Source of the DNA: Escherichia phage vB_EcoM_E9.1
Direction: 5' to 3' (one strand)
DNA length: 64,000 nucleotides
Sequence record: PP886230
Both the position numbers and the translations under genes were made by a program. Within the stretch, counting starts at the first letter, position 1; each line of letters begins with the position of its first letter. This document shows positions 26,103-58,868 of the stretch, in pieces. The notes under the pieces were generated by a model. It was not told the DNA's origin, made no database searches, and saw nothing but the letters and a program-made list of their open reading frames with translations.

Positions 26103-26942
26103 ATGACAAATAGACCAAAGCGTAAAAAGTATCTCAATAATGCTGATTTACTTCGTGAAATACAAAAAAGTAAAATTTCATATTGCTGGTTATTAGACAA
26201 ATCATATAGTATGTATGATTATATTGTTTTTCATGAGTCAGAAATTACTGCTGAGTTACTAGAAAAAGCTAAGGCAGCCCGAATTAAACGACTGAACAAT
26301 GAAATGCTTGATAGTATTCGTGAAAAGGAAAATATGAGTGCTAAAAAAGCTAAAGAATATGCAGATGAACACAATTTAGTTATCACTGACGTTCCAATTG
26401 ATGAAGTTGTTATTCGTGTTATTACAGATGAACATATTCCACCAGATACTAGAGTTAACTTTGAACCATTCAAGCATTATATTGTAGATAATGAAGGTAT
26501 TCTCTATGAAGTTTGTCGTTCTCACTGGAAAGGCGACCTTGAAACTGGTGAATTCAGTACTGTTCATGGTAAAATTACAAATGAACTTGGGAAGATGTTC
26601 ATTAAACTTGCAGAGGAAATCTCACACAAATCTAATTACAGAAACTATACATACTTAGATGAAATGATGGGTGATGCAAGAATACAATTAGTTAAAAACG
26701 CACTTCTCTTTAAAGAGAGCATTCTTTATAAAAAAGATAAACCAGCAGTTCAGCTAAATCCTTTCTCTTACTATACATCATTCGTAAACAATAGTTTTCG
26801 TTCTATATTGAATAGTGAGAAAAATGTTCGAAATATACGTGATGATTTACTTGAAATGCATGGCTTTACGCCATCACATACACGTCAAATTGAAATTGAA
26901 TTGAACATGATTGAAAGGAAAAATGAAGATGGCTCTGTTTGA
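26103..26942 (+). CDS. 55: gp55-like late sigma factor, 279 aa (longer than T4 gp55)
   Basis: N-terminus KRKKYLNNADLLREIQ resembles T4 gp55 KPKYNYVNNKELLQAI as recalled; sits upstream of gp47/gp46 as in T4. Confidence 0.55.
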   Translation: MTNRPKRKKYLNNADLLREIQKSKISYCWLLDKSYSMYDYIVFHESEITAELLEKAKAARIKRLNNEMLDSIREKENMSAKKAKEYADEHNLVITDVPIDEVVIRVITDEHIPPDTRVNFEPFKHYIVDNEGILYEVCRSHWKGDLETGEFSTVHGKITNELGKMFIKLAEEISHKSNYRNYTYLDEMMGDARIQLVKNALLFKESILYKKDKPAVQLNPFSYYTSFVNNSFRSILNSEKNVRNIRDDLLEMHGFTPSHTRQIEIELNMIERKNEDGSV

Positions 26943-34854: not shown

Positions 34855-36594
34855 ATGAGTTGGAAACGACATATGACAGTGGGAAGGTCTAAACTATCGA
34901 CCATCCCAAATCAGTCCAGTAATAGCAATAAATCAACAGGAACGAAAACAAATTTCGCTTCCTATCTTCCTGTTGTATATAATGGATTGGCAAACCGTAC
35001 TGAGCGTTATAGTCAGTATGAGCAAATGGACCAAGATCCTGAAATTAGAACTGCATTGAATATAATTGCTGACTTTTGTACCCAAAGTACTGAAGATTTT
35101 GGTTTACCATATAAAATCAAATATAAAGATGACATTGGTGATACTGAAGTAACGACTATTGAAGATCGTTTAGATGCATGGACTGAACAAAATGATTTTA
35201 AAACACGAATGTATGAAATTGTGCGTGGTCTTCTGAAATATGGTGATCAATTTTTCATTCGAGATCCAGAAACATTCGATTGGTATTGGGTAAGCCCCAA
35301 AAATGTTGAGCAAGTATTTGTTAACGAAGCCACTGGTAAAACACCAGTAATTTATTATATACGTGACGTATCATTAAATTTGAAAGATAAAGTTTTTAGT
35401 AACCTTCAAGTAGGATTTGATAAAACCGCTTATCCAGGAGCTATTCCGACAACAATGGGTGGCGGTGGTTCAGTAGCTGCGGGTGGTGCATCTGGTTTTA
35501 CAAGTCAAGGAAATACTGCTGACCCATTCAGTACTAACGGTCAATTAGACGTTATTCCTGTTGGTGCAGAACACGTAATTCATCTAACGCTAAATACAGG
35601 ACAAGATGGGGTATGGCCTTTTGGTACTAGTATACTTGAGGACGTATTTAAAGTCTATAAGCAAAAAGAACTTCTGGAAGATAGTATCATAATTTATCGT
35701 GTACAACGTGCACCTGAGCGTCGTGTATTTAAAATTGATGTTGGTGATATGCAAGCACACCAAGCGATGGCTTATGTTGAAAGATTTAAAAATGAAATCC
35801 ACCAGCGTAGAATACCTTCAAACAAAGGTGGAAGTACTTCATTAATGGATGCAGCATATAATCCATTAAGCATTTTAGAAGACTACTTTTTCCCACAAAC
35901 TTCTGAAGGTCGTGGTTCAGATGTTCAAACATTACCAGGCGGTGATAACTTAGGACAAATTGATGACTTACGTTATTTTAATAATAAATTGATTCGTGGT
36001 CTTCAAATACCAGCTTCTTATCTACCACAAGGTCCAGATGATGGTGGTGTTTCATTATTTGGTGATGGTGCTACACAAGCTATGGCAAGTGAATTGCGAT
36101 TCAATAATCAATGTATGCGTTATCAACGTTTAGTTGCAAAACATTTTGATGCTGAATTCAAAAGATTTATGGTTAAAAATGGATATAACATTAGTACTTC
36201 ATCTTTTGAAGTTATTATGAATCCACCTATTAACTTAGCTTCTTATCGTAAAGCTGAACTAGATGCTAAACTAATTAATACATATCTTCCTCTTAATGAC
36301 TTGCCTTATATGGCGAAACAAACAATTCTTGAAAAAATGGGCTTTTCTAAAGCTGATATTGTTAAGAATGAACAAATGTGGTTACAAGAGAATCCACAAG
36401 ATGGTTCCCAACCTTCTGGTGGTGAAGAAGATTCCGCTGGATTACAGTCTGTTGGTATTGATGCTCCAAATGATCCTGGAATGGATCTTGGTATTGATGG
36501 AGAAGGTAATTTGGAAAGTGCTGATGCCGAATACCAAGAGCAACAGAGTGGAAGTGGTGGTTTCAACCCTAATAATTTAGGCAATTCTTTTTAA
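34855..36594 (+). CDS. 20: portal protein, gp20-like
   Basis: IYRVQRAPERRVFKIDVGDM ... TLPGGDNLGQIDDLRYF matches the T4 gp20 core ([21 protein letters not shown] ... TLPGADNTGNMEDIRWF) as recalled; sits upstream of the protease/scaffold/capsid genes. Confidence 0.75.
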   Translation: MSWKRHMTVGRSKLSTIPNQSSNSNKSTGTKTNFASYLPVVYNGLANRTERYSQYEQMDQDPEIRTALNIIADFCTQSTEDFGLPYKIKYKDDIGDTEVTTIEDRLDAWTEQNDFKTRMYEIVRGLLKYGDQFFIRDPETFDWYWVSPKNVEQVFVNEATGKTPVIYYIRDVSLNLKDKVFSNLQVGFDKTAYPGAIPTTMGGGGSVAAGGASGFTSQGNTADPFSTNGQLDVIPVGAEHVIHLTLNTGQDGVWPFGTSILEDVFKVYKQKELLEDSIIIYRVQRAPERRVFKIDVGDMQAHQAMAYVERFKNEIHQRRIPSNKGGSTSLMDAAYNPLSILEDYFFPQTSEGRGSDVQTLPGGDNLGQIDDLRYFNNKLIRGLQIPASYLPQGPDDGGVSLFGDGATQAMASELRFNNQCMRYQRLVAKHFDAEFKRFMVKNGYNISTSSFEVIMNPPINLASYRKAELDAKLINTYLPLNDLPYMAKQTILEKMGFSKADIVKNEQMWLQENPQDGSQPSGGEEDSAGLQSVGIDAPNDPGMDLGIDGEGNLESADAEYQEQQSGSGGFNPNNLGNSF

Positions 36595-36667
36595 ACATAA
36601 ATAACAGTGTATAAGAATGAGGGTTTATTTTTACCCTCATTTATAATGCATATTTCAAGGAGATCAA

Positions 36668-36895
36668 ATGTTAAAGGACATCTTTGAATCTAGCAGTGAT
36701 TCAATGTACGACCCTGAAGATGATCAGAACGTATATAAAATTACTGATTCCAGAAAACCGAAACTAACATTACAAGTATTAAACAACTTAAGAAAGTACC
36801 GTGAATTTAAAGCACATGAAGAACAACGCCGCAAAAATGTGGTTGCAGTTGTTTATGCCGCTACACCAACTGGTGACGGTTCTGGGTTAATGTAA
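36668..36895 (+). CDS. small prohead-core-like protein, 75 aa
   Basis: Position between portal and protease matches T4 gp67; no motif verified. Confidence 0.4.
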   Translation: MLKDIFESSSDSMYDPEDDQNVYKITDSRKPKLTLQVLNNLRKYREFKAHEEQRRKNVVAVVYAATPTGDGSGLM

Positions 36896-36996
36896 ATCAA
36901 AAATCGCACTTTTTAAAGCTTTTAAAAAAGGCGATTTTATTCAGTACTAAATAATATCATACTTTATACGAATGTAATATATCTATGGAGGATATA

Positions 36997-37845
36997 ATGG
37001 CGAATTTAAAACTACTACAAGAAGCAATTGCGGCGTTTGCAAATGGCGAACAAGATATTGCTGATAAAAAAATGCGTAAGTATTTCGTTGAGCAAGCTCA
37101 AGAAATTAACAAACAACTAGAAGAAAGCATGGAAGATGAAGACGACGATGAAGATTGTGAAGTCGAAGTTAAAGTCAAAGATGAAGAAAAGCTTGACGAA
37201 GATTTTGATGTACAACCAGACGAAGGTCTAAATGCTGAAATCGAATACACCCTTGGTGAAGAAGATGAAAGTGCAGAAGAAGAAGTTGAATTCTCTGCTG
37301 ATGCAGATGGTGACGGTGAAGACGATGTTGACGTTGAAGTGAAAGCTGATGCTGATGTTCCTTCCGAAGACCAATGGGAATCAATCCAAGATGCTTTCCG
37401 TGGCCTACAACAAATGTTTGATGAAATCGGTGACGGTGAAGTTGATCTAGATTCTGAAGAAGAAGTAGAAGATAGCGAAGAAGAAGTTGGCGTTGACGGT
37501 GACGACGAATTTGCTGATGTTGAATTCGGTGATGAAAAATTCGGTGAATCCTTCAAACTAGAAAAAGTTGCTCCAGTTGATAAGAAAGAAAAAGCTGGCA
37601 CTCATTCCAAATCTCCAGTAGCACCAGAAGCTAAATCTCCAGTAGCAGGAGCAGAGCCAGTTAAATTCGCTAAGAAAACTGACCAAGCACCACTACTAGA
37701 CCTAGATGATAAATCTGTTCTACCAAAAGATAGTCTAGATCTTGGTAAAAATGCTCGCGGTGAAATGAAAGATGTTAAAGCACCAAAAACTACTGCATCT
37801 AATTCTAAATCACCACTAAGCAAAGCACAACCTAAACTAAAATAA
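36997..37845 (+). CDS. highly acidic prohead core / scaffold-like protein
   Basis: Asp/Glu-rich low-complexity sequence; preceded by CTAAATAATATCATACT late-promoter motif at 36947-36963. ATG 36997 has a GGAGG SD; the track ATG at 36985 lies inside that SD. Confidence 0.5.
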   Translation: MANLKLLQEAIAAFANGEQDIADKKMRKYFVEQAQEINKQLEESMEDEDDDEDCEVEVKVKDEEKLDEDFDVQPDEGLNAEIEYTLGEEDESAEEEVEFSADADGDGEDDVDVEVKADADVPSEDQWESIQDAFRGLQQMFDEIGDGEVDLDSEEEVEDSEEEVGVDGDDEFADVEFGDEKFGESFKLEKVAPVDKKEKAGTHSKSPVAPEAKSPVAGAEPVKFAKKTDQAPLLDLDDKSVLPKDSLDLGKNARGEMKDVKAPKTTASNSKSPLSKAQPKLK

Positions 37846-37865
37846 ATATCTGAAAGGAGATCATT

Positions 37866-38489
37866 ATGAGTAGTATGATTCGTGAATGGTCTTCATTCAA
37901 TGATTCTAAAGTTGTTTTGGAACATCGTGATAATGGATTTGGTGGGCGTGACTGCTATCTTCGTGGTATTGCTATTCAAGCCGACCAACGAAATTTGAAC
38001 GAGAGAATTTACCCTTTATCTGAAATTACAAGGGCAGTAAATAACATGAACCAGCGTTTAGCTAAAGGTGAAAGCATTCTTGTTGAATGTGACCATCCAG
38101 AAACACTAACTATTAACCTAGACCGAGTAGCAGCAATGATTACTAAGGTTTGGATGGAAGGTGCTAATGGTATGGCAGAAATCAAACTACTTGATACTGC
38201 ACATGGTCAAAATATCCGTAAAATGCTAGAGGCTGGTGTAAAACTTGGTGTAAGTTCTCGCGGTTCCGGTAACGTTGATTATAATGGAATAGTTTCTGAT
38301 TTTGAAATTATCACTATTGATATTGTTGCTCAACCTAGTGCTCCAGAAGCATACCCAACAGCGGTATTTGAATCTCTGATGAGTAAGTACGGATCACCTT
38401 GTAATAGTTCTAAAAAAATCACTGAATCTAAAAAAGTAAATAATTTAGATTCTGAAATATACGATTTTTTCAAGAAATTAAAAGGTTAA
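37866..38489 (+). CDS. 21: prohead protease, gp21-like
   Basis: NERIYP, ECDHPE, KLGVSSRGSGNV and IVAQPSAPEAY match the T4 gp21 pattern as recalled. Confidence 0.7.
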   Translation: MSSMIREWSSFNDSKVVLEHRDNGFGGRDCYLRGIAIQADQRNLNERIYPLSEITRAVNNMNQRLAKGESILVECDHPETLTINLDRVAAMITKVWMEGANGMAEIKLLDTAHGQNIRKMLEAGVKLGVSSRGSGNVDYNGIVSDFEIITIDIVAQPSAPEAYPTAVFESLMSKYGSPCNSSKKITESKKVNNLDSEIYDFFKKLKG

Positions 38490-38555
38490 CATTTTAAAAA
38501 TATAAATATCTGTATGTTGAAGTACAGATATTTCAGTACTTAAAGGAGAGAACGA

Positions 38556-39671
38556 ATGTCTAAATTAGAAAAGCTTCTAAAAGAATCATCTCTTTCTGAT
38601 GAGGCAAAACAGCTAATTCAGGAAGCATGGAATGAAGAAAAGAATACACTAGCCGCAGAGATGCGTGAAGAAATGAAAGGCCGTTATCAGCAAGATTTGG
38701 CTGAACTAACCGAAGGTTTGAATACTATGGTTACTCAAGTCATTGCTGAAGAAATGGGTGCTGTATATGAAGAGAAAAAACGTCTCGTTGAAGATCGTGT
38801 AACTCTACGTAAAACACTAAGCAATTTCTCTGCGTTTTCAAACTCTGTTTTGGCTGAAGAAGTTAAACAAATGCGTAAAGAACGTAAGCATCTTCATGAA
38901 TGCATGGGTAAATTCGTTAATTTTTCTAACGGTATACTAGCAGAAGAGCTAAAAGAATTCCACACTGAAAAACGTCAACTAGTTGAAACTCGCGTTAAAC
39001 TACTTGCTGAAGGTTCACGTCAAATTGCTGAAGCTCGTAATAACTTCATCAAACGTACATCTGAAAGTGCTGCTAAATATATTGCAGAAACCACTCAGAA
39101 GAATCTATATGCGTTGAAACAAGATCTAGTGGAAGCAAAACAAAATATGTTTGGTCGTAAAATCTTTGAAGCATTTGCTCAAGAGTTTAATGTCAAACAA
39201 TTTAATGAAAACTCATTGCTACGTTCCCTAACTGAATCAATTAAATCTAAAGAAGATGAAATTGCTCAAGTTAAGCAAGAACTACATGAAACTGCTAATG
39301 CGGTTAAAGCTGCTAAAACCAAACTACGTATTATGGAAGATGCACAAGCACGTAATGCGATTATGTCTGAACTAGTAAAACCACTAACTGCACAGCAAAA
39401 ACAAATTATGGAATCCCTTCTAGCTACTTCACCTACTGAAAAGCTTAAAGAAGATTTCAGCAAGTACCATAAGTCAGTACTTAACGGTACTAAAGTAAAT
39501 GAATCTGCTACCACTCGTCAAGCAGTTCAGTCTTCCGCTAAGAAAACTCTTGCAGAAGGTAAAGTAATCACTGGCAACCGTCAGGCTATTGTTGAAAGCG
39601 AAGAAATGACCGCTGACGATATGGCATTCCTAAAAGAACTCGATGTTCTTTCAGGTATCAATAAAAAATAA
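38556..39671 (+). CDS. scaffold protein, gp22-like
   Basis: Charged, helix-prone sequence between protease and capsid genes; exact TATAAATA at 38501-38508 upstream. Confidence 0.5.
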   Translation: MSKLEKLLKESSLSDEAKQLIQEAWNEEKNTLAAEMREEMKGRYQQDLAELTEGLNTMVTQVIAEEMGAVYEEKKRLVEDRVTLRKTLSNFSAFSNSVLAEEVKQMRKERKHLHECMGKFVNFSNGILAEELKEFHTEKRQLVETRVKLLAEGSRQIAEARNNFIKRTSESAAKYIAETTQKNLYALKQDLVEAKQNMFGRKIFEAFAQEFNVKQFNENSLLRSLTESIKSKEDEIAQVKQELHETANAVKAAKTKLRIMEDAQARNAIMSELVKPLTAQQKQIMESLLATSPTEKLKEDFSKYHKSVLNGTKVNESATTRQAVQSSAKKTLAEGKVITGNRQAIVESEEMTADDMAFLKELDVLSGINKK

Positions 39672-39709
39672 ACATTTTAAAGCATTTTAATAATCAAATT
39701 TTTCAGTTC

Positions 39710-39727
39710 TATAAATAATATCATACT
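39710..39727 (+). promoter_or_regulatory. late promoter (TATAAATAATATCATACT)
   Basis: Exact T4-type TATAAATA at 39710-39717, about 45 nt upstream of the capsid gene ATG. Confidence 0.55.
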
Positions 39728-39762
39728 GAAAAACGAATATAACATCTTTAAGGAGATATATA

Positions 39763-40938
39763 ATGTCACAACTACTAAATGAATCCAAATGGGTAGCAGT
39801 AAAAGAGAAACTAGTTGAAGGTCTACAGGGTACTCGTAAGTCTGTAATGGAAACTGTTCTTGATAACCATCGTAAAGTTATGCTAACTGAATCCGCAACT
39901 TCTGGTGCAACTACCGCTGGTAACATCGCTACTCTAAACAAAGTGATTCTACCAATTATGCGTCGTGTAATGCCAACCGTTATTGCTAACGAAATCATCG
40001 GTGTTCAACCAATGACTGGTCCAGTTGGTCAGATCCACACCCTACGTGTGCAATATGCTGATAACGCACCTGGTGTTATCGCTGGTGAAGAAATGCTTTC
40101 TCCATACAAAATCGCTAAATCCTACTCTGGTGATCTAAATGCGGATAATAGCAACCCACAAGCTGCTCCTACTAGCCAACTAGAAGGTACTATGGGTCGT
40201 CGCGTTAACATCCGTATTCTACGTGAAACTGTTGAAGCGAAATCTCGTCGTCTATCTGCACGTTGGACTGTTGAATCTGCACAAGATGCTCAATCCCAAC
40301 ATGGTGTTGACGTTGAAGCAGAACTAATGGCTGCAATCGCTCAAGAAGTTACCGTAGAAATCGACCAAGAGCTACTAAGCCGTCTACGTGCACTACCTGG
40401 TGCTGCTGCTGTAACTTATGACCAATCTAAAGTTACTGGTGTTGCAACCTTCGTTGGTGATGAGCACGCTGCTCTAGCAACTCTAATTAACCGTCAAGCA
40501 AACGAAGTTGCTCGTCGTACTAAGCGTGGTGCTGCAAACTGGGCTGTTGTTTCCCCAACTGCACTAACCATTCTACAATCTGCTACTACTTCTAGCTTTG
40601 CACGTACCACTGAAGGTACTTTCGAAGCACCAACTAACGTTAAGTTTGTAGGTACTCTAAACAGCACTATGCGTATTTTTGTTGATACTTATGCAAGTGA
40701 TGCAGAAGATATTCTAATTGGTTATAAAGGTAATGCAGAAACTGATGCTGGGGTGTTCTATTGCCCATACATCCCACTAATGGCTTCCGGTACTGTAATG
40801 GACCCTAACACTGGGGAACTCGTGACCACATTCCTTACCAGGTATGGTTATGTACAATTGACTGATAGTACTTCTTCTCTTGGTAACGCTGCTGACTACT
40901 ACAGCAAAATCGCTATCAAAAACGTTACTTTCATGTAA
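39763..40938 (+). CDS. 23: major capsid protein
   Basis: Follows protease and scaffold genes; late promoter and strong terminator; codon choice looks like a highly expressed gene. Sequence homology to T4 gp23 not verified. Confidence 0.65.
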   Translation: MSQLLNESKWVAVKEKLVEGLQGTRKSVMETVLDNHRKVMLTESATSGATTAGNIATLNKVILPIMRRVMPTVIANEIIGVQPMTGPVGQIHTLRVQYADNAPGVIAGEEMLSPYKIAKSYSGDLNADNSNPQAAPTSQLEGTMGRRVNIRILRETVEAKSRRLSARWTVESAQDAQSQHGVDVEAELMAAIAQEVTVEIDQELLSRLRALPGAAAVTYDQSKVTGVATFVGDEHAALATLINRQANEVARRTKRGAANWAVVSPTALTILQSATTSSFARTTEGTFEAPTNVKFVGTLNSTMRIFVDTYASDAEDILIGYKGNAETDAGVFYCPYIPLMASGTVMDPNTGELVTTFLTRYGYVQLTDSTSSLGNAADYYSKIAIKNVTFM

Positions 40939-41076: not shown

Positions 41077-41997
41077 ATGAAACCAAATGAAGAAAAATTT
41101 ATTAATACAGTGAATGAAAAGTACGGTACTGGTGTGTATTTGTTTGATAAAATGGTATATATTAATGCTCATAAACAGGTTGAACTTTATTGTGTAGAAG
41201 GTGGTCATTATTTCAAAATCACTCCTATGCAAATAGTCCGACCTTCTGCAAAAGGATGTAACATTTGTCAAAAAAACACAGCATACACGACTGAAACGTT
41301 TATTGAAAAAGTTAAAACCATCCATCCAACATTGTCATTTGAGAAAACTATCTACAAAAAACAAAGTGACAGTAATGGGCGAGTCATCGTTACGTGTCAT
41401 AATGATCCGAATGATGTGCATGATTGGATTGTATCTGCCAATACTTTGTTAAGAGGTAAATCAGGGTGTGGTGTTTGTTCTGGTAAAGGCGGGAGGACAT
41501 TGGAGCAATTTGTCAAAGAAGCAAAAAAAGTACATGGTGATGATTATGATTATTCTGAATCATGCTATACTGGTAGTGAAGAATATATGGATATGAAGTG
41601 TAATAATTGCAATGAAAAATTCAAACAACAGCCCAAAGCACACCTTTCAGGACGCGGGTGTCCTAACTGTGGTAAGTATGGATACCAACCATCAAAACCT
41701 GGATATTTCTATGTACAAAAACTAACTAACAATAACAAGACGGTGTACAAATATGGGATCACTGGTGATATGAAACGCCGTGTCAACGAACAAAGCCGCA
41801 ATTCTGAGTTCGAGCATGAAGTACTTATAGAACGCTACTTTGAAGATGGCAATCAACCATTACTGTTGGAAAAGTTCATAAAGAAATACATTGAAAGTGG
41901 TGTTGTAAGTACTGAAGAGTTACCGTCAGGATTTACTGAAACATTTGATGCTAAGTATCTTGAAAGTGTTTTAGAAATTGTAAATACTTTTAAGTAA
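41077..41997 (+). CDS. triple zinc-ribbon protein with C-terminal T5orf172 / GIY-YIG-like domain, 306 aa
   Basis: Three repeated modules each with a CxxC pair (KGCNICQKN, SGCGVCSGKG, MKCNNCNEK/GCPNCGKYG); C-terminal GYFYVQK...YKYGITGDMKRR resembles the GIY-YIG/T5orf172 fold. Confidence 0.5.
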   Translation: MKPNEEKFINTVNEKYGTGVYLFDKMVYINAHKQVELYCVEGGHYFKITPMQIVRPSAKGCNICQKNTAYTTETFIEKVKTIHPTLSFEKTIYKKQSDSNGRVIVTCHNDPNDVHDWIVSANTLLRGKSGCGVCSGKGGRTLEQFVKEAKKVHGDDYDYSESCYTGSEEYMDMKCNNCNEKFKQQPKAHLSGRGCPNCGKYGYQPSKPGYFYVQKLTNNNKTVYKYGITGDMKRRVNEQSRNSEFEHEVLIERYFEDGNQPLLLEKFIKKYIESGVVSTEELPSGFTETFDAKYLESVLEIVNTFK

Positions 41998-45368: not shown

Positions 45369-48300
45369 ATGTATATCGATGCTTATATGGAACGTAAACG
45401 TACTGGTGATATTCTTCATGTAGTTGAACGTAAGAATGGTAAACGTATTCTACGCGAATTAGATCCAGTATATGAATATTATGTTGAATCCCCACAAGGA
45501 ACACATAAAACTGTTTATGGTACAATGGCTAAACATTTTGAGTTTCAAACTCAAGCTCAAATGAATAAAAGTGTAGAGCAACACAAAAGTGAAGGTCTAC
45601 GTATTTTTGAAAGTGATTGTAACATTACATTTAAAACATTAGCTAAAGAATATATGGGAAAAGGTTCACCCGATTTGAACATCGTGTTCTTCGATATCGA
45701 GACTGATTTCCATAAGAAATTTGGTTATGCTCCACCATCAGACCCGTTTAACCGAGTAACCGCTATTTCTCTATATCAATCATGGACTGGAAAGGATTAT
45801 GTACTTACTTTACCACCTGCTGATATGGAAATTTATGAAGCACAAGATATTGTTCGCCAACTAAATGAAGAAACAAACGATCCTAACAGTACTGTAATTT
45901 TATATACAGACGAAAAGGAAATGTTTATGGAATTCTTTAGTTTAATTGATGATTCTGATGTTATTTCAGGATGGAATAGTGAATTCTTTGATATTCCATA
46001 TATGATCAATCGAACTAAAAAAATCTTCAATGAAGCAACAACTGCTCGTTGGTGTTTATGGAATAAAAAACCAAATTCACGTGAAGCAGACAACTTTGGT
46101 AAAACTGTTCAAACATATGATCTGGTAGGTCGCGTCCATCTTGATTATTTGGCTTTGTATAAGAAACATGCTGGTCAAGTTGAACAATCTTATAAACTAG
46201 ATTATATTGCTGAAAAAGTAACTAAAGAAAATAAAGTATCCTATGAAGGTTCATTGGATAAACTTTACAGAGAGGATTACATTACTTTCTTGCGTTATTC
46301 TAAACAGGATAGTATTCTTCTTAAAAAGATTGATGCTAAATGTGACTATATCAACCTACACAATCGACTTGCACACAAAGAATGTGTACTTATCAGTACA
46401 ACAATGGGTTCAGTAGCACTAATCGACACTGCTATTATCAACTTAGCACATACTCGTGGTGAAGTTGTTTTCAACAAAGCACCGAAAGATGATCTTGAGT
46501 TTGATCCAGAAATGGAATATTATGGTGAAGATGGTGAAGAAGAAGATGAGAAAATTAGTGCAAAAGCAGCAGGTGCATGGGTACAAGATCCAGTACTAGG
46601 ACTTGTAAGTGACCTTGGGTGTACTGACTTTAACTCTCTTTACCCTACTGTTCTACGTACTTTGGGTATGAGTACTGAATGTATTCTTGGTCAATTACGT
46701 CAAGATTACACCGATGCGTATCTTGCAGCTAAAATCCAAGAACAGAAGAACAAATCTAAATCTAAATCATTTGAACCAGATTGGACTGCGGCATGGCATG
46801 GTTTATTTGCTGCTGTTGAATTTACAATGGTTCATGAAAAGTCAGAAGAAACATTGATTGTTGATTTAGAAGATGGGAGTTCTTTTAAAGCAACGGGCAA
46901 AGAGCTATATGATATTATTTTTGCAGAAGATAGTACTATTGTACTTAGTGCAAACGGAACACTTTTTGATAAGTCTAAGTCTGGTGTAATTCCTGACATT
47001 CTAACTCAATGGTATTCTGAACGTAAAGCACAGCAAAAAATGGTCATTGACTACAAACATATGTATACTGATGGTTGGGAGTTTAATGGCTATGAAAAAG
47101 TCGAACCACTACTATCAAACTATACCCCTGGTACAATGTTTAGAACTAATATTCATGATAATGATCCTGTATACTTACTTCGTAAAGAAATTGGTAAAGG
47201 ACAGTGGGATGAAGTTGCTAAGTTGATTGTAGAAAACGGATTAGTACTAAAAGATGGTCGTATTTTCTGTCCTAAAGAAGAAAAAGATTACTTCAAACAA
47301 CGTAGTGCTTTCTGGAAACAGAACCAACAGATTCGTAAGATTCTTCTAAACAGTCTATATGGTGCACTATTGAACAAAGGTTCTCGTTTTTTTGACAAAC
47401 GTTTAGGTCAATCCGTAACATTAACTGGACGTTCTATGACCAAACATATGGCAAGTCGTATCAATGAAATTACTACTGGTGTATATAACCACCAAGGTGG
47501 TTCAGTAATTTATGGTGATACTGACTCAGTTTACTTTAGTGTAACTCATTATCTGAAAGAACAAGGTATTCCATATAATCTATCTAAAGAAGAGATTGTT
47601 GATATGTATATTAAAATTGGTGAAGAAGTTGGTGAATCTTTCCCATCATTTATGCATGAGATGTTCAACACTGGTATTGAAAAAGGTAAGATTGTTGGTG
47701 CAGACCTTGAGATGGTTGGTTCGCGTGGCCTATTCTTGAAGAAAAAACGTTATGCAATTCTGAAGTACTGGGAAGATGGGTTCCGTAAAGATATTGATGG
47801 TAAACCAGGTGAAATCAAAGCGATGGGTCTTGAAATTAAACGCTCAGACACGCCAAAATACATCCAGAACTTCCTAGAAGAGACTCTAATCGCATTACTG
47901 GTAGGTGAGAGTGAACAACAGCTAAAACAGCGTGTACGTGAGTTTAAGGACGTATTTAAGGATATGCCTGTACATGAAAAAGGTTCACCAAAAACTGTAA
48001 AAAACTACACTAATTTAGAGGCTGAATATCAGCTAACTGGTAAGTGTAAAGTTGGTCACGTTCTTGCTGGTATCCAATGGAACCGTCTACGTGAAGTTTA
48101 TGATGATAAATCTGTTCCAGAAGTAACAGATGGAACAAAAGTAATTGTCTGTAACTTAAAAGATAATCCTATGGGAATTAAAGCAGTTGGTTATCCAATT
48201 GACTGTGTTGAGTATCTTCCAGAATGGTTCTTGGAACTACCATTTGATACTGAAAAAATGGAAGAGATTGTTCTAACTAAAAAATTAGAGAATATTTTTG

Positions 48301-48374
48301 GTATTTTGGATATGGATATTGGTATTCATGAAAAAAGTACTGCGTCAGTAAACAATGGATTCTTCACTTGGTAA
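45369..48374 (+). CDS. 43: family B DNA polymerase with 3'-5' exonuclease domain, gp43-like
   Basis: Exo I FDIETD, motif A KILLNSLYGALLN, motif C IYGDTDSVYF. Confidence 0.9.
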   Translation: MYIDAYMERKRTGDILHVVERKNGKRILRELDPVYEYYVESPQGTHKTVYGTMAKHFEFQTQAQMNKSVEQHKSEGLRIFESDCNITFKTLAKEYMGKGSPDLNIVFFDIETDFHKKFGYAPPSDPFNRVTAISLYQSWTGKDYVLTLPPADMEIYEAQDIVRQLNEETNDPNSTVILYTDEKEMFMEFFSLIDDSDVISGWNSEFFDIPYMINRTKKIFNEATTARWCLWNKKPNSREADNFGKTVQTYDLVGRVHLDYLALYKKHAGQVEQSYKLDYIAEKVTKENKVSYEGSLDKLYREDYITFLRYSKQDSILLKKIDAKCDYINLHNRLAHKECVLISTTMGSVALIDTAIINLAHTRGEVVFNKAPKDDLEFDPEMEYYGEDGEEEDEKISAKAAGAWVQDPVLGLVSDLGCTDFNSLYPTVLRTLGMSTECILGQLRQDYTDAYLAAKIQEQKNKSKSKSFEPDWTAAWHGLFAAVEFTMVHEKSEETLIVDLEDGSSFKATGKELYDIIFAEDSTIVLSANGTLFDKSKSGVIPDILTQWYSERKAQQKMVIDYKHMYTDGWEFNGYEKVEPLLSNYTPGTMFRTNIHDNDPVYLLRKEIGKGQWDEVAKLIVENGLVLKDGRIFCPKEEKDYFKQRSAFWKQNQQIRKILLNSLYGALLNKGSRFFDKRLGQSVTLTGRSMTKHMASRINEITTGVYNHQGGSVIYGDTDSVYFSVTHYLKEQGIPYNLSKEEIVDMYIKIGEEVGESFPSFMHEMFNTGIEKGKIVGADLEMVGSRGLFLKKKRYAILKYWEDGFRKDIDGKPGEIKAMGLEIKRSDTPKYIQNFLEETLIALLVGESEQQLKQRVREFKDVFKDMPVHEKGSPKTVKNYTNLEAEYQLTGKCKVGHVLAGIQWNRLREVYDDKSVPEVTDGTKVIVCNLKDNPMGIKAVGYPIDCVEYLPEWFLELPFDTEKMEEIVLTKKLENIFGILDMDIGIHEKSTASVNNGFFTW

Positions 48375-48925: not shown

Positions 48926-49657
48926 ATGGATCTACGCAACGTACTACGTGACCTCGTAAACACAACCAGTGGTATTGACTTCTCTTGTATTGCAGTAAGC
49001 AGTGAAGACCGTGGTGAAGGACAACGTGTATATCTAGAAGCGTACACAGATGACCGAACTCTTGTAATGCGAGCATATACTAAAGAAGATGTTCCTGAAG
49101 TTCAGGGTCGTTTTGGCTTAGGTAATCTAGGTCTTCTTCAGGGTCTAATGTCTCTAAAAACATACAGTACCGAAGGAACCACAATCACATCAAATGTTAA
49201 AGATGGTTCAGTTAAAAGTCTGGCATTTAAATCTGAAGATGCAAGCACTACATTTATGGTACAAGCTGAAAAACTTATTCCAGTTCAACCACGTTTTCAT
49301 GAACAACCATATGACGTACAGGTTATTCCTAGTGCAGCAAAAGTTCAGGAACTAAAGAGTTTTTCTGGTGTATTTAAATCTTTTAGTTCTCTTGTAACTC
49401 CGTATACTGAAGGCGACACCCTATACTTTCACGTTGGTGAGAAAAACAAAAGTAACCACGTTGGTTCTCTAGCTTTTTCTAAAACTGAAGGTGAATTAGG
49501 TCTTGGTTTTGGTTATAATATTGATCGCGTACTTCAAGCATTATCTCGCGTATCTAATGCCGAATCAGTATCACTTGGTATTACTAAAACTGGTATGCTA
49601 AATGTAACACTAGATACTGGAATTGCAGTATACAAATTTTACGTAACAGGCTGCTAA
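48926..49657 (+). CDS. possible sliding clamp, gp45-like
   Basis: N-terminal LRDLVNTTSGIDF weakly resembles T4 gp45 LKNFATINSGIML as recalled; size and genomic context fit. Confidence 0.4.
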   Translation: MDLRNVLRDLVNTTSGIDFSCIAVSSEDRGEGQRVYLEAYTDDRTLVMRAYTKEDVPEVQGRFGLGNLGLLQGLMSLKTYSTEGTTITSNVKDGSVKSLAFKSEDASTTFMVQAEKLIPVQPRFHEQPYDVQVIPSAAKVQELKSFSGVFKSFSSLVTPYTEGDTLYFHVGEKNKSNHVGSLAFSKTEGELGLGFGYNIDRVLQALSRVSNAESVSLGITKTGMLNVTLDTGIAVYKFYVTGC

Positions 49658-49929: not shown

Positions 49930-50229
49930 ATGAAAATTAAAATGATTAATGATTACGTTCTTGTTCGACAAATTGAAGCACAGAATAAAAGTACTGGTGG
50001 TATTATTCTAGGTAATGTTGAACCACCATGTATTGGGATGGTAATTTCCGTTGGTCCAGGTAAAATTCTTCCGAACGGACAACTTGCAGAACATAATATT
50101 AAAGAAGGTGATATGGTTGTGTTTGGTCGTTCATCTTTGAACACACCACTGACTGAAGATCTTGGTGGCGGTGAAGATACATATTATGTAATGAAAATCG
50201 AAGAGATTTTTGGTAAGAAAAATGGCTAA
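49930..50229 (+). CDS. GroES-like co-chaperonin (functional analogue of T4 gp31)
   Basis: DYVLVRQIEAQNKSTGGIIL matches the GroES mobile-loop region [25 protein letters not shown] SD before ATG 49930. Confidence 0.75.
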   Translation: MKIKMINDYVLVRQIEAQNKSTGGIILGNVEPPCIGMVISVGPGKILPNGQLAEHNIKEGDMVVFGRSSLNTPLTEDLGGGEDTYYVMKIEEIFGKKNG

Positions 50230-50947
50230 AAAGAAATTTATTCCATTTTGGATGGTCCCTGCTCACTGGGGACTTTCTGGAAAGGCAAAAGAGATAGCTA
50301 AAGCATACTACTACAATGATGATTATGAAGCTGATATGAAAGTTGCTGAATTGACATATCTAACTCCATATGAAGTTGAAGTGGCCCAATTGGATATTAA
50401 AAAGAAATATAGCGTAATTGGAGATTTGGAATATCTAATTGCTGCACTTGATGTTGAACTAAAATATTCTAAAATTACTCGTGAACAGTATGATGTTAAA
50501 GTTCTTGATGCAAAACTAAGTATTGGAGTTATTACAGAAAAAGAATATGATATGGAAATCATTGAGTTAATGCCAGAAGGTGATGAAAAAAGGCTTAAGG
50601 CTATTGAATTTGCATATCGTTACGATGAAATCACACAAAGTGAATATTCTAAGGAAATATACACACTTCGTAAAGAACCTTGGATTGATTTGGATGTTGT
50701 TCTTGATCCTGAAACTAATGAAGTTGAGTTTGTATTTGACTATAATGAATATTTCTGGAAAAAGTTGAAAGCTGAAGGTCATCCAGGAAATGATGAAGAA
50801 GAAATTATCGATAACTTTGTGAGAGACTTGGGGCGTAAACTTGCTACGGATGATTTCAGTGATGATTACGACACAAAGCTGGTGAGTGCGAACGAAGGAT
50901 TAGACAAGCTACCTGGTTTGCCTGAAGGATTTCGTTCATATAGATAA
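50222..50947 (+). CDS. hypothetical protein, about 241 aa
   Basis: Track ORF; ATG 50222 preferred over the TTG at 50210. Confidence 0.5.
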   Translation: MAKKKFIPFWMVPAHWGLSGKAKEIAKAYYYNDDYEADMKVAELTYLTPYEVEVAQLDIKKKYSVIGDLEYLIAALDVELKYSKITREQYDVKVLDAKLSIGVITEKEYDMEIIELMPEGDEKRLKAIEFAYRYDEITQSEYSKEIYTLRKEPWIDLDVVLDPETNEVEFVFDYNEYFWKKLKAEGHPGNDEEEIIDNFVRDLGRKLATDDFSDDYDTKLVSANEGLDKLPGLPEGFRSYR

Positions 50948-50951
50948 CATA

Positions 50952-50986
50952 TAAAAAAAGGAGAGCAAATGCTCTCCTTTTCTTTT
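50952..50986. terminator. bidirectional intrinsic terminator
   Basis: GGAGAGC-aaat-GCTCTCC flanked by A- and T-runs; the stem is nearly identical to the terminator at 5411. Confidence 0.7.
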
Positions 50987-50994
50987 GAAAAATA

Positions 50995-51684
50995 TTAAAC
51001 CAATGCTGGGATGTATTGGAAAAGTTTAACACCGAAATCACCTGCTGCATCAGCAGATTGGGAACGTAGGTAAACTTCGGTAACACCATCTTTAGCAAGT
51101 AGTGGAACACCAGTTAGATCATCAATTAGTAGACGGCCTTCTTCGGATTCAGTACTTGGTACACCTTGTGGTGATTTAAGATCTTTGTTAAAGACACCCG
51201 CACGTTCAACTAGGAAGGTAACAACAGAAGCATCAGCAATACTAACTGAACCTGCACTCAATACACCATCAGGTGCGTTGGTGAAACCAGTAACTGGAAA
51301 TACTTCAAGACCATTACCTGCGATGTTAGAGGTAGCGATGATAACCGCACGTTGTTGAACAACATCGACAATACGTTTAACGTTAGTTTGTGCTGCATAA
51401 GATGCATTGTAATCAGCTTCTAGTGTGCCAAGAACAAATGCAGTTCCATCAATACGTTTGATACCTTTATCATTTAGATATGCTAGAATTTCTTCTGGAA
51501 TATCAGTGTTTAGAAAACGTTGTAGACCAGCATAAGAAGAAACTGCACCAGTAACTAGAACGTTTACGTCTCCTAGCTTACTGATAGCAATGGATGCTAG
51601 GGCGTTAGTGCCACAAAAGTAACCTAGAATACGTTCAAAGGAATAACCATTGATACGTTCAAAAGAAGTATTAGTATATGACAT
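50995..51684 (-). CDS. Ala/Gly/Val-rich late protein, paralogue A, 229 aa
   Basis: Shares QQRAV(I/L), ER..VFNK and other blocks with the adjacent 199-aa ORF. Confidence 0.55.
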   Translation of the reverse strand: MSYTNTSFERINGYSFERILGYFCGTNALASIAISKLGDVNVLVTGAVSSYAGLQRFLNTDIPEEILAYLNDKGIKRIDGTAFVLGTLEADYNASYAAQTNVKRIVDVVQQRAVIIATSNIAGNGLEVFPVTGFTNAPDGVLSAGSVSIADASVVTFLVERAGVFNKDLKSPQGVPSTESEEGRLLIDDLTGVPLLAKDGVTEVYLRSQSADAAGDFGVKLFQYIPALV

Positions 51685-51698
51685 AATCTATCCTCCTA

Positions 51699-52298
51699 TT
51701 ATAGTTGAACAGGAAGAGCAGCACGTACTTTAATTGCTACAGCAGTAGATGCACCTGCATCACCAACACCATCAGTACCTTGACTTACGAAAGTTTTGGT
51801 ACGGAAAACTTTAGCTTGAGCGATAGACTTAGCTAGGTCAACAGTTGGATCAACTGGAGCAGGACATGCTGAACCAGGACGAACTTCTTGCTTGTTAAAT
51901 ACGTCTTGACGTTCACAGATGAAAGTCAATGCAACAGAATTAGCACCACCTGCTACATCAGCACCACTAGTGCCGAACGCAACTACGTTTGGATTAGCAT
52001 TTTTGAAATCAGCAGGAATAACAACTTCTGAATCAAGAGCTAGTAGAGAGGTAGTAACTAGAACTGCACGTTGTTGTAGTAGTTGGGTAACCATGAATAG
52101 GTTATATTGAGCATTACTTAGAGCAGTTTGATACGCTTCAGCTTGAACATCAGAACCGTCAGAAGTAACTTTGGTAGTACCTAGTTCAACATCAGTTGGT
52201 AGATCGATTACGATGGTAACGAAACCGTTATTACCACCCCACCATTCGCGAGCAACGCTAGACATACCATAGTTACGGTTAAAAGAATTAAGACTCAT
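51699..52298 (-). CDS. Ala/Gly/Val-rich late protein, paralogue B, 199 aa
   Basis: Paralogue of 50995-51684; minus-strand TAAATAATATCATA late motif at plus coordinates 52401-52414. Confidence 0.55.
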   Translation of the reverse strand: MSLNSFNRNYGMSSVAREWWGGNNGFVTIVIDLPTDVELGTTKVTSDGSDVQAEAYQTALSNAQYNLFMVTQLLQQRAVLVTTSLLALDSEVVIPADFKNANPNVVAFGTSGADVAGGANSVALTFICERQDVFNKQEVRPGSACPAPVDPTVDLAKSIAQAKVFRTKTFVSQGTDGVGDAGASTAVAIKVRAALPVQL

Positions 52299-52422
52299 GA
52301 AAATCTCCTTGTCAAATTTTGTGCAGGTATATCCTGCTTAAAGTTATTTATCAAAAAATATCACTAGCATTTAAATTTACTGAGATATTTAATGAATTTC
52401 TATGATATTATTTATCAAATCT

Positions 52423-57746
<5,324 letters not shown>

Positions 57747-57833: not shown

Positions 57834-58868
57834 ATGAAATCTCTAGCTGAAATTCGTGCACACCTAAAAGCAGAACAAGAAAAAGCAGAAGCTCAAAAGA
57901 ATGGTACATTTACTGGTGAGCGTAAAGCTGATTCGTTCTTAGCTTTCTGGAACGTACCTTATAACGAACCACTAAACCTACGTTTTCTACCAGATGCAGA
58001 TGAGTCTAACCCATTCTTCTGGCGTGAACGTGACATGATTAACCTAACTTTCAATGGTGTAGTCGGTATGCACACTGATAAAGTTACCGTTCAAGTACCT
58101 TGTAACGAAATGTGGGTTCCTAAATCCTGTCCGGTTCTGAAAGAAGTACGTCAATGGTTCCAAAGTGCGAATGAAACAGGGAACGAAGAACTAAAAGCAA
58201 TGGCTGGTCGTTACTGGAAGAAGAAAACCTATCTAATGCAATGTTTTATTGCTCCTGATAGCGTTGCAGTAAAAGACGACATTGCACCAGAAAATCCAAT
58301 TCGTCGTATTCTGGCTAACAAAGATATCTTTGATAAAGTTAAATCCATCCTGCTAAATCCAGGCATCAAAGAGTCTCCAACTCACTACGTTCAAGGTCGT
58401 GATTTTGGTATTGTTAAAACTAAGAATGGTGGTGGTTATAATAGCTACGACATGTCTCAATTCTCCATGTCTGAGCGTCCACTAAACGAAGAAGAACTAG
58501 CAGCAATTGAAAAATATGGCCTATACAATCTAAATGATTTTATGCCAAAACAACCAACTCCAGAAGAGTTGAAAGCAATTGAAGAAATGTTCGAAGCATC
58601 AGTAAATGGTGAAGCATATGATCCAGCACGTTGGGCATTTGCATATCGTCCAGCAGGTGTACCAAAACCTAACTCTGGAACTGTTACTGAATCAAAACCA
58701 ACTCCTGCTCCAGTACAACAAGAGTCAGCACCTGCACCAGTTACACCAGCCCCACAAGCTGCTCCAGTAACTCCAGTCGCTACCCCAGCAGCAACCACTC
58801 CTGAAGCACCAAAAGAACAACTATCTGCATCTGCACTAGTTGCTCGTTTGAAACAACAAGGTAAGTAA
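57834..58868 (+). CDS. 32: ssDNA-binding protein, gp32-like, with Pro/Ala/Thr-rich C-terminal tail
   Basis: LRFLPDADESNPF resembles the T4 gp32 LRFLPS region as recalled; Cys/His cluster CNEMWVPKSCP; C-terminal PAPVTPAPQAAPVTP low-complexity tail. Confidence 0.65.
   Translation: MKSLAEIRAHLKAEQEKAEAQKNGTFTGERKADSFLAFWNVPYNEPLNLRFLPDADESNPFFWRERDMINLTFNGVVGMHTDKVTVQVPCNEMWVPKSCPVLKEVRQWFQSANETGNEELKAMAGRYWKKKTYLMQCFIAPDSVAVKDDIAPENPIRRILANKDIFDKVKSILLNPGIKESPTHYVQGRDFGIVKTKNGGGYNSYDMSQFSMSERPLNEEELAAIEKYGLYNLNDFMPKQPTPEELKAIEEMFEASVNGEAYDPARWAFAYRPAGVPKPNSGTVTESKPTPAPVQQESAPAPVTPAPQAAPVTPVATPAATTPEAPKEQLSASALVARLKQQGK

Follow-up and report, generated by a model that had tools for sequence, protein, structure and literature searches.

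What do two reversed genes of unusual composition, lying inside the replication block of a jumbo coliphage, contribute to the phage? The question is raised by a 64,000-nucleotide stretch of Escherichia phage vB_EcoM_E9.1 (PP886230; the whole stretch is called the window here), which derives from an Asteriusvirus, a jumbo coliphage of the PBECO4/121Q/phAPEC6 type with a genome of approximately 350 kb. The RefSeq annotation of PBECO4 was transferred onto the window by tblastn, and 50 genes were placed; positions are window coordinates, and gene ranks are among these 50 genes. The first-pass annotation had placed two minus-strand reading frames of 229 and 199 amino acids (aa) here, and both are present just there, between the RNase H gene and the genes for GroES and DNA polymerase, that is, inside the replication block as it had said (Table 1). 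It took them for abundant late proteins of decoration, internal or tail-tube-like type. Neither protein is new: both have been described in the literature and carry the name 'virion structural protein' in RefSeq, and their paralogy was published for RaK2 in 2013. What is added here is a fold prediction, the rejection of a tail-tube role, evidence from promoter, leader and codons, rough copy numbers and a testable assignment to the layers of the capsid. Our tentative reading, to which we give slightly less than an even chance, is that the pair are accessory proteins of the decoration or cement type of the T=28 head.

The 199-aa gene (gene 1) corresponds to PBECO4 gp504, 121Q gp618, phAPEC6 gp210 and JP4_353, and its orthologues are RaK2 ORF107w (gp107w) and CBB_271. 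The 229-aa gene (gene 2) corresponds to PBECO4 gp505, 121Q gp617, phAPEC6 gp211 and JP4_352, with RaK2 ORF106w (gp106w) and CBB_270 as orthologues. The 1.9-kb region was 99-100% identical to the Asteriusvirus genomes PBECO4, 121Q, phAPEC6, SP27, JP4 and others. The two proteins were 100% and approximately 99.6% identical to those of phAPEC6, 121Q, PBECO4 and JP4, and the 199-aa protein was 69% identical to its RaK2 counterpart and approximately 50% identical to those of CBB and GAP32. The first-pass annotation had regarded the two genes as paralogues from the common blocks QQRAV and ER..VFNK. This relationship was confirmed by BLASTP, which aligned the two proteins beyond chance, at 35% identity over 89 aa that contain both blocks (E = 8e-9). 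Furthermore, both proteins matched phrog_9326 ('virion structural protein', RaK2-like jumbo phages) over its full length (profile positions 1-195 of 195), with E-values of 1.3e-86 for the 199-aa protein and 3.4e-86 for the 229-aa protein. When 27 orthologues were aligned jointly, the two subfamilies matched along their entire length. Invariant residues occupied 14 columns, among them an N-terminal R-x-x-G, G-x-N, QRAV, ER and a C-terminal proline; the longer paralogue carried an extra helical insertion of approximately 30 residues. The RaK2 study of 2013 had termed ORF106w and ORF107w 'two distantly related proteins' (PMC3622015).

The composition of the pair is atypical in the way that had been described. 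Ala, Gly and Val together made up 32.7% and 30.1% of the two proteins, which ranked 1 and 2 of 50 (mean 18.0%, standard deviation 5.1%), and the capsid gene came third with 27.4%. The GC content at the pair was 0.41 versus about 0.34. Both proteins were poor in charged residues and slightly hydrophobic, with grand averages of hydropathy of +0.1 and +0.2. Moreover, the codon choice was capsid-like: with the capsid gene as the reference, the codon adaptation indices of 0.72 and 0.65 ranked 1 and 4 among the 49 other genes, and when the tail-sheath gene served as an independent reference, the pair ranked 1 and 2 of 50. The bias formed a gradient from the major capsid protein (MCP; 0.76) through the 199-aa (0.72) and 229-aa (0.65) proteins to the sheath (0.60), the tube (0.52) and the tube paralogues (0.40). 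Its sharpest marker was the leucine codon CTA, used at 0.73 and 0.68 in the pair and 0.80 in the MCP versus 0.06-0.3 in ordinary genes; in this comparison of pair and MCP, the use of TTA was zero. Across the window, highly expressed genes had CTA for 68-80% of their leucines and avoided TTA, and ordinary genes did the reverse; the preference was strongest at 39763-40938, 36985-37845, 50995-52298 and 57834-58868. CTA is the rarest leucine codon in E. coli. No tRNA gene was found in the 64-kb window, and a phage tRNA-Leu is not listed in the RaK2 paper.

The pair appears to form a self-contained two-gene late operon, reversed between RNase H and GroES, whose signals suggest very strong expression. 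A late-promoter motif had been noted before the pair, and this distal motif, TAAATAATATCATA, with a T4-type ATAAATA core and an extension, was identical over 14 nt to that of the capsid gene. The exact 14-mer occurred three times in the window, the other two copies lying before the capsid gene (39712) and the gene of vsp521, an acidic head-core protein (36948), at 37 and 23 nt 5' of the respective start codons; a one-mismatch copy preceded another virion gene. In the PBECO4 loci examined, exact copies were present only at the same three sites. The proximal motif, GATAAATAA, was likewise conserved, as TTGATAAATAAC(A/T)TTAAG was found at a constant distance in every orthologue examined from Asteriusvirus, Alcyoneusvirus, Mimasvirus and Eneladusvirus, and it was still recognisable in Vibrio phage and metagenomic relatives. 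Both ATAAATA positions recur, at -123 and -59 in RaK2 and at -128 and -61 in CBB versus -117 and -53 in the window. ATAAATA has been predicted independently as the late promoter of CBB and GAP32 (PMC5259590), and the window itself carries an annotated late sigma factor gene of gp55-like type. Since there are two T4-type ATAAATA motifs, one of which is the capsid gene's extended 14-mer, we infer that the pair is expressed late. No transcriptome of any phage carrying the pair was found.

Directly after the proximal motif, the 5' leader contains a stem-loop, GCAGG-ATATA-CCTGC. If the spacing rule of T4 late promoters, which was used to place the transcription start, applies here, the stem-loop would begin approximately 3 nt from the 5' end of the transcript. 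Each of the 12 distinct orthologous leaders (the window and orthologous loci including L002, L008, L009, L010, L012 and L015-L021) had a hairpin at the same position in its minimum-energy fold. The stem sequences vary, being GTAAG/CTTAC in RaK2, GCCAG/CTGGC and CCAGG/CCTGG in Vibrio phage 2.275.O, and GGAAGC/GCTTCC and GCAGC/GCTGC in metagenomic relatives. In an unedited MAFFT alignment of the leaders, 85% of the cells paired, compared to 30-42% in slid controls; three of the five pairs were altered on both sides, and the covariation score was reached by none of 500 shuffles. Covariation drawn from 12 related sequences is supportive, short of conclusive. Both genes have a strong ribosome-binding site; in that of gene 1, the GGAGAT core was invariant and the flanking T-run nearly invariant across the same 12 leaders. 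The obvious reading of the hairpin is a candidate mRNA-stabilising element. The capsid-gene leader, judged by eye, had no obvious equivalent.

The claim that the pair encodes abundant virion proteins agrees with the literature, in which the pair or its orthologues were detected by mass spectrometry (MS) in the virions of four related phages: RaK2 (gp107w/gp106w), phAPEC6 (gp210/gp211), CBB (CBB_271/270) and JP4 (JP4_353/352), uncleaved in the published data. These pairs (phrog_9326) are the same genes in the same tandem order and orientation, and we saw no difference of substance among them. In phAPEC6, which is 99.5% identical to the window, the sequence coverage was 69.8% for gp210 and 69.9% for gp211, compared with 74.9% for the MCP and 68.0% for the sheath, in a virion proteome of 62 proteins (PMC7247149). 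CBB_270 reached 91.3%, the top of 55 virion proteins, and the other member of that pair 56.4% (PMC5259590). On sodium dodecyl sulfate-polyacrylamide gels of RaK2 virions both proteins were visible as bands at the predicted masses (PMC3622015), and therefore they are uncleaved. Furthermore, N-terminal peptides marked 'Met-loss [N-Term]' were recorded for both JP4_352 and JP4_353 (PMC12648861 supplement), so that the N-termini are intact in virions. Neither protein thus shows removal of a propeptide by the prohead protease. The supplements of Hua et al. 2017 held no 121Q proteome.

The label-free abundance of the 229-aa protein was the second highest in JP4, at 1.37e8 versus 6.55e8 for the MCP and 1.21e8 for the sheath (PMC12648861 supplement). 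When the JP4 abundances were normalised for molecular weight, with the MCP set at 1620 copies, approximately 590 copies were obtained for the 229-aa protein, approximately 130 for the 199-aa protein (from two peptides only), approximately 130 for the sheath, approximately 54 for the 228-aa tube protein and 3 for the portal. Since about 150 sheath and 12 portal copies are expected, the estimate is good to three- to four-fold only. The sheath expectation rests on 25 rings of six (PMC7247149). Even with this error, the approximately 590 copies of the 229-aa protein, which is four to five times the sheath per mole, lie above the stoichiometry of sheath and tail.

To examine the fold, AlphaFold2 was run with the family alignments and gave a predicted local distance difference test score (pLDDT) of 78.9 and a predicted template modelling score of 0.77 for the 199-aa protein, and 81.8 and 0.79 for the 229-aa protein. 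Both models have a ferredoxin-like beta-alpha-beta-beta-(alpha)-beta core with one 26-residue helix, and the 229-aa protein is predicted to add two short helices to the same fold. The N-terminal arms, residues 1-21 and 1-15 in the two models, had a pLDDT below 50, and yet they are the most conserved segment, invariant within each family. A conserved arm that is predicted to be disordered is typical of one that becomes ordered only on partner binding. For the AlphaFold models there was no match to a tube fold, an HK97 fold or the fold of a known decoration protein. Foldseek against BFVD returned family members and uncharacterised phage proteins only, and sequence searches of Pfam, NCBIfam and PDB, with the single proteins and with the family profile, gave nothing significant. 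Two labels in public records were checked in passing. The 'hemagglutinin repeat-containing protein' label of phAPEC6 gp211 (MK817115) corresponded to no significant Pfam family, the best being GLMA_C at E = 0.095, and the 'recombination protein' label on the 199-aa gene of phage CRJP21 (record OQ708376) was without domain support.

Where in the virion could such proteins reside? The electron cryomicroscopy (cryo-EM) study of phAPEC6 describes an elongated protein that 'cannot be assigned' and that builds a hexagonal network in a 1:1 ratio to the capsid protein, as well as a further protein at the hexamer centres. The same capsid features have been described for 121Q, and the maps of both phages are at 9-10 A. 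The mature capsid protein has only about 37 kDa, and therefore the extra density needs extra proteins. The pair is the leading candidate for one of the outer layers because its expression signals are near those of the MCP, its abundance is above that of the sheath, it is not processed, its arm is conserved and its fold is compact. We propose that a very strong late operon, read from tandem T4-type promoters through the 5' hairpin, the 199-aa gene and the 229-aa gene to the terminator, supplies both proteins, which enter the virion uncleaved at copy numbers above that of the sheath (about 150) and below that of the MCP (1620). The conserved N-terminal arms may anchor them to the capsid lattice or to one another, and a hetero-oligomer of the two paralogues is possible. 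The full version of this proposal, namely a hetero-oligomeric cement of a fold new to capsid decoration (ferredoxin-like core, long helix and conserved N-terminal docking arm) that would form the hexagonal or zig-zag outer network and stabilise the T=28 capsid, its supply being ensured by a late operon of its own whose tandem promoters are combined with a conserved hairpin that would stabilise the mRNA at its 5' terminus, is possible but doubtful.

The comparison with known decoration proteins is partly favourable. Lambda gpD, T4 Soc and Hoc, Dec of phage L and pb10 of T5 are, like the pair, small, very abundant, uncleaved, late virion proteins. One terminus of the pair is predicted to be disordered when free and is strongly conserved, which is a further likeness; the N-terminus of lambda gpD is comparable and becomes ordered on capsid binding. 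However, none of these families (gpD with its beta-tulip, Soc, the Ig-like Hoc, the OB-fold Dec, pb10) has sequence or fold similarity to the pair; no protein with a ferredoxin-like core would have been seen in the role before, and it would be filled by two paralogues instead of a single protein. An outer protein layer without an assigned gene is present on the capsid of this phage type, and the pair is a candidate for it. Several points weigh against placing the pair on the capsid. All the MS data come from whole virions, neither protein has been placed on the head by experiment, and the PHROG category 'head and packaging' is given without a stated basis. The JP4 estimate of approximately 130 copies of the 199-aa protein, with its two peptides and three- to four-fold error, misfits both a 1:1 ratio with the 229-aa protein and a 1620-copy lattice. 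Other small, abundant and unassigned virion proteins compete for the same density, namely the 14-kDa gp347/JP4_206, the 16.9-kDa gp306c and the 41-kDa gp253. An inner body measuring 91 x 18 nm must likewise be built from a protein present in hundreds of copies. The decoration option of the first-pass annotation is the best supported of its three, but it is unproven. Phage phiKp24 (PMC9700779) was considered as a solved relative and set aside as uninformative on the family, being of a different lineage with T=27, one large capsid protein and no decoration proteins.

The tail-tube option has a history, since Simoliunas et al. 2013 proposed gp106w and gp107w as the tail tube of RaK2 because no tube gene had been found (PMC3622015), prompted by the size of 21-24 kDa, the abundance and the predicted beta content. 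T4 gp19-type tube proteins do resemble the pair in size and abundance class, and the annotated tube paralogues are low both in MS (coverage of 9-30% in phAPEC6) and in JP4 abundance. However, the three genes directly after the sheath gene in RaK2 and PBECO4 match tail-tube PHROGs (phrog_4542 at 4.5e-82, with a weak link to the large phrog_45), so genuine tube homologues exist elsewhere in the genome, beside the sheath gene, where the pair is not. The pair lacks the tube-type beta-barrel fold and any profile similarity to tube families, the family profile giving an hhalign probability of 0.15% against PBECO4 tube gp021. The pair are therefore not tail-tube proteins; we regard that role, rejected on fold, profile and gene position, as scarcely credible. 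A place on the tail surface, as subunits of decoration rings or anchors of the 'hairy' fibres on sheath and collar, is quite unlikely (anchors of fibres at the capsid hexamer centres were counted with the capsid proteins). The tails of phAPEC6 and 121Q bear fibres and decoration rings and their heads bear fibres, all without gene assignment, and the approximately 130 copies of the 199-aa protein are sheath-like. Nevertheless, the 229-aa protein exceeds the sheath in JP4 and the codon bias of the pair exceeds that of the sheath; the proteins are modelled as compact globular domains, not fibres, and the rings are few, with three annular fibre positions and two decoration levels (PMC7247149).

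Internal head proteins, for instance the building blocks of a phiKZ-like inner-body rod packed with the DNA, are another candidate role, which we consider unlikely. Such a rod of approximately 91 x 18 nm was seen by bubblegram imaging in 121Q and phAPEC6; it would need several hundred copies of proteins of 20-25 kDa, which is compatible with the estimate for the 229-aa protein, and the exact promoter 14-mer is common to the operon and the very acidic head-core gene vsp521. The inner-body proteins of phiKZ and the internal proteins of T4 are also abundant and head-associated, and the pair, too, belongs to a phage with an inner body. T4 internal proteins are cleaved by the prohead protease. Likewise, phiKZ inner-body proteins are extensively processed by that enzyme (cited in PMC7247149), whereas the pair keeps its N-termini and full size and has no sequence similarity to them; according to the phAPEC6 authors, no phAPEC6 protein resembles phiKZ inner-body proteins. 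The pair is moreover acidic (isoelectric points (pI) of 4.6-4.8), with few charges and a slightly hydrophobic character, unlike DNA-associated proteins, and its genes lie outside the head-morphogenesis cluster. The internal option of the first-pass annotation is thus weakened by the intact N-termini in virions and kept as a rival only. Finally, the pair could be non-structural abundant late proteins, such as assembly chaperones, that co-purify with virions. SSB, a RecA-like protein, topoisomerase and thymidylate synthase do occur in these virion proteomes, and the operon adjoins GroES. However, such contaminants showed 7-17% coverage, whereas the pair reached 56-91% in four phages purified independently in four laboratories and was visible as bands on the RaK2 virion gel, which makes this explanation very improbable.

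The proposed accessory role at the capsid matters since two low-resolution cryo-EM studies of 121Q-type T=28 capsids assigned neither the outer layers nor the inner body. The pair is the top candidate by abundance, and a targeted test could settle how very large heads are reinforced. In addition, a wrong tail-tube proposal and the unsupported labels 'hemagglutinin repeat' and 'recombination protein' are removed, and the leader hairpin and the CTA preference are small leads on how jumbo phages maximise late expression.

The distribution of the family was also surveyed. By tblastn, 73 phage records were found to carry it; they belong to Asteriusvirus, Alcyoneusvirus, Mimasvirus and Eneladusvirus and to a single marine Vibrio phage. 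When 1.84 billion cluster representatives were searched exhaustively with the family profile, only 42 clusters matched, and these were alike in size apart from some short fragments and a weak match of 1054 aa (E = 9.4e-06). The family is therefore small and does not extend beyond this clade of phages. The most distant metagenomic relatives were detectable only with the family profile (E approximately 1e-18). In the loci examined the synteny was constant, with RNase H and terminase on one side and the pair transcribed the opposite way; on the other flank of the relatives there was a virion protein of approximately 190-240 aa, followed in most loci by a zinc-ribbon gene, GroES or both. The RaK2, phAPEC6, 121Q, CBB and JP4 loci have the same neighbours, RNase H on one side and a 240-aa virion protein and GroES on the other. 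Judging from the sequences, the duplication appears ancient, and the retention of both copies and their synteny up to distant relatives argues for non-redundant and probably interacting roles. PA5oct-like Pseudomonas phages have the sheath in common, but no homologue of the pair was detected in them by tblastn; divergence is possible and this was not used as evidence. PA5oct, for which RNA-seq data exist, was likewise not among the tblastn matches for the pair.

Some relatives depart from the two-gene pattern. Vibrio phage 2.275.O (L009 1135-3206; NVP2275O_488/487/486) carries three tandem paralogues instead of two, and the extra upstream copy has a family-profile probability of 97.8%, together with an ATAAATA motif and a leader hairpin of its own. 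In the metagenomic locus L010, the 267-aa gene that lies upstream of the pair is not a family member. P0130 (L012 10001-10903, 300 aa), a distant metagenomic member, has a C-terminal extension of approximately 100 residues, which weakly matches a 'virion structural protein' of the T4-like Synechococcus phages ACG-2014f (E approximately 9e-4), a similarity set aside as too weak.

The features of the operon and of its surroundings are shown in Table 1. The head-morphogenesis cluster, from portal through core, protease and scaffold to MCP, spans 34987-40938.

Table 1. Features of the two-gene operon and annotated genes of the window (late-promoter motifs and leader stem-loop as predicted).
Feature	Position	Strand	Details
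Distal late-promoter motif TAAATAATATCATA	52401-52414	-	T4-type ATAAATA core with extension; ~117 nt before gene 1 start
Proximal late-promoter motif GATAAATAA	52344-52352	-	~53 nt before gene 1 start
5'-leader stem-loop	52323-52337	-	directly after proximal promoter motif
Ribosome-binding site of gene 1, AGGAG	52305-52309	-	
Gene 1	51699-52298	-	199 aa, 20.9 kDa, pI 4.8
Ribosome-binding site of gene 2, AGGAGG	51692-51697	-	in 14-nt spacer after double stop TAA TAG
Gene 2	50995-51684	-	229 aa, 24.3 kDa, pI 4.6
Intrinsic terminator hairpin	50953-50984	-	14 pairs then T-run; 11 nt past gene 2 stop, between convergent genes
Baseplate genes	5-26 kb		PBECO4 annotation
Late sigma factor (gp55-like)	26103-26942		PBECO4 annotation
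Portal	34987-36594		PBECO4 annotation
vsp521, acidic head-core protein	36985-37845	+	PBECO4 annotation
Prohead protease and scaffold	between vsp521 and capsid gene		PBECO4 annotation
MCP	39763-40938		PBECO4 annotation
DNA polymerase	45369-48374		PBECO4 annotation
GroES	between DNA polymerase and the pair		PBECO4 annotation
RNase H	52597-53493		PBECO4 annotation
Large terminase, SSB, UvsX, UvsY	after RNase H in gene list		PBECO4 annotation

The convergent neighbour of the pair, vsp506 (50222-50947 (+), 241 aa, phrog_13349), is an acidic protein with 36% charged residues that is annotated as a virion structural protein. Its position is occupied by a gene in every relative examined, and its phAPEC6 counterpart, gp212c, is not in the MS table. 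Neither vsp506 nor the neighbour hyp509 had a match in PDB or Pfam. A 243-aa protein (48926-49657 (+), phrog_12062) is encoded directly 3' of the DNA polymerase gene and was present in phAPEC6 virions as gp215c, at 26% coverage. It had no match in Pfam or PDB; its size and position are reminiscent of a sliding clamp, which it may be. A sliding clamp was reported absent from the clade by the CBB authors (PMC5259590).

In the head cluster, vsp521 (286 aa, pI 4.05, 43% charged) combines a capsid-like codon bias with the exact promoter 14-mer at 36948-36961 (+), and its phAPEC6 counterpart, gp228c, had an MS coverage of just 16.7%. These expression signals and the low coverage fit a core or scaffold protein that is made in large amounts and then largely removed in maturation. 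Between the capsid gene and the next gene, approximately 965 bp that are not in PBECO4 contain a 306-aa reading frame (41077-41997 (+)) with a match to the DUF4379 treble-clef zinc finger (E = 8e-9) and a weak one to T5orf172; it probably represents a mobile insertion of endonuclease-like type, directly behind the capsid gene.

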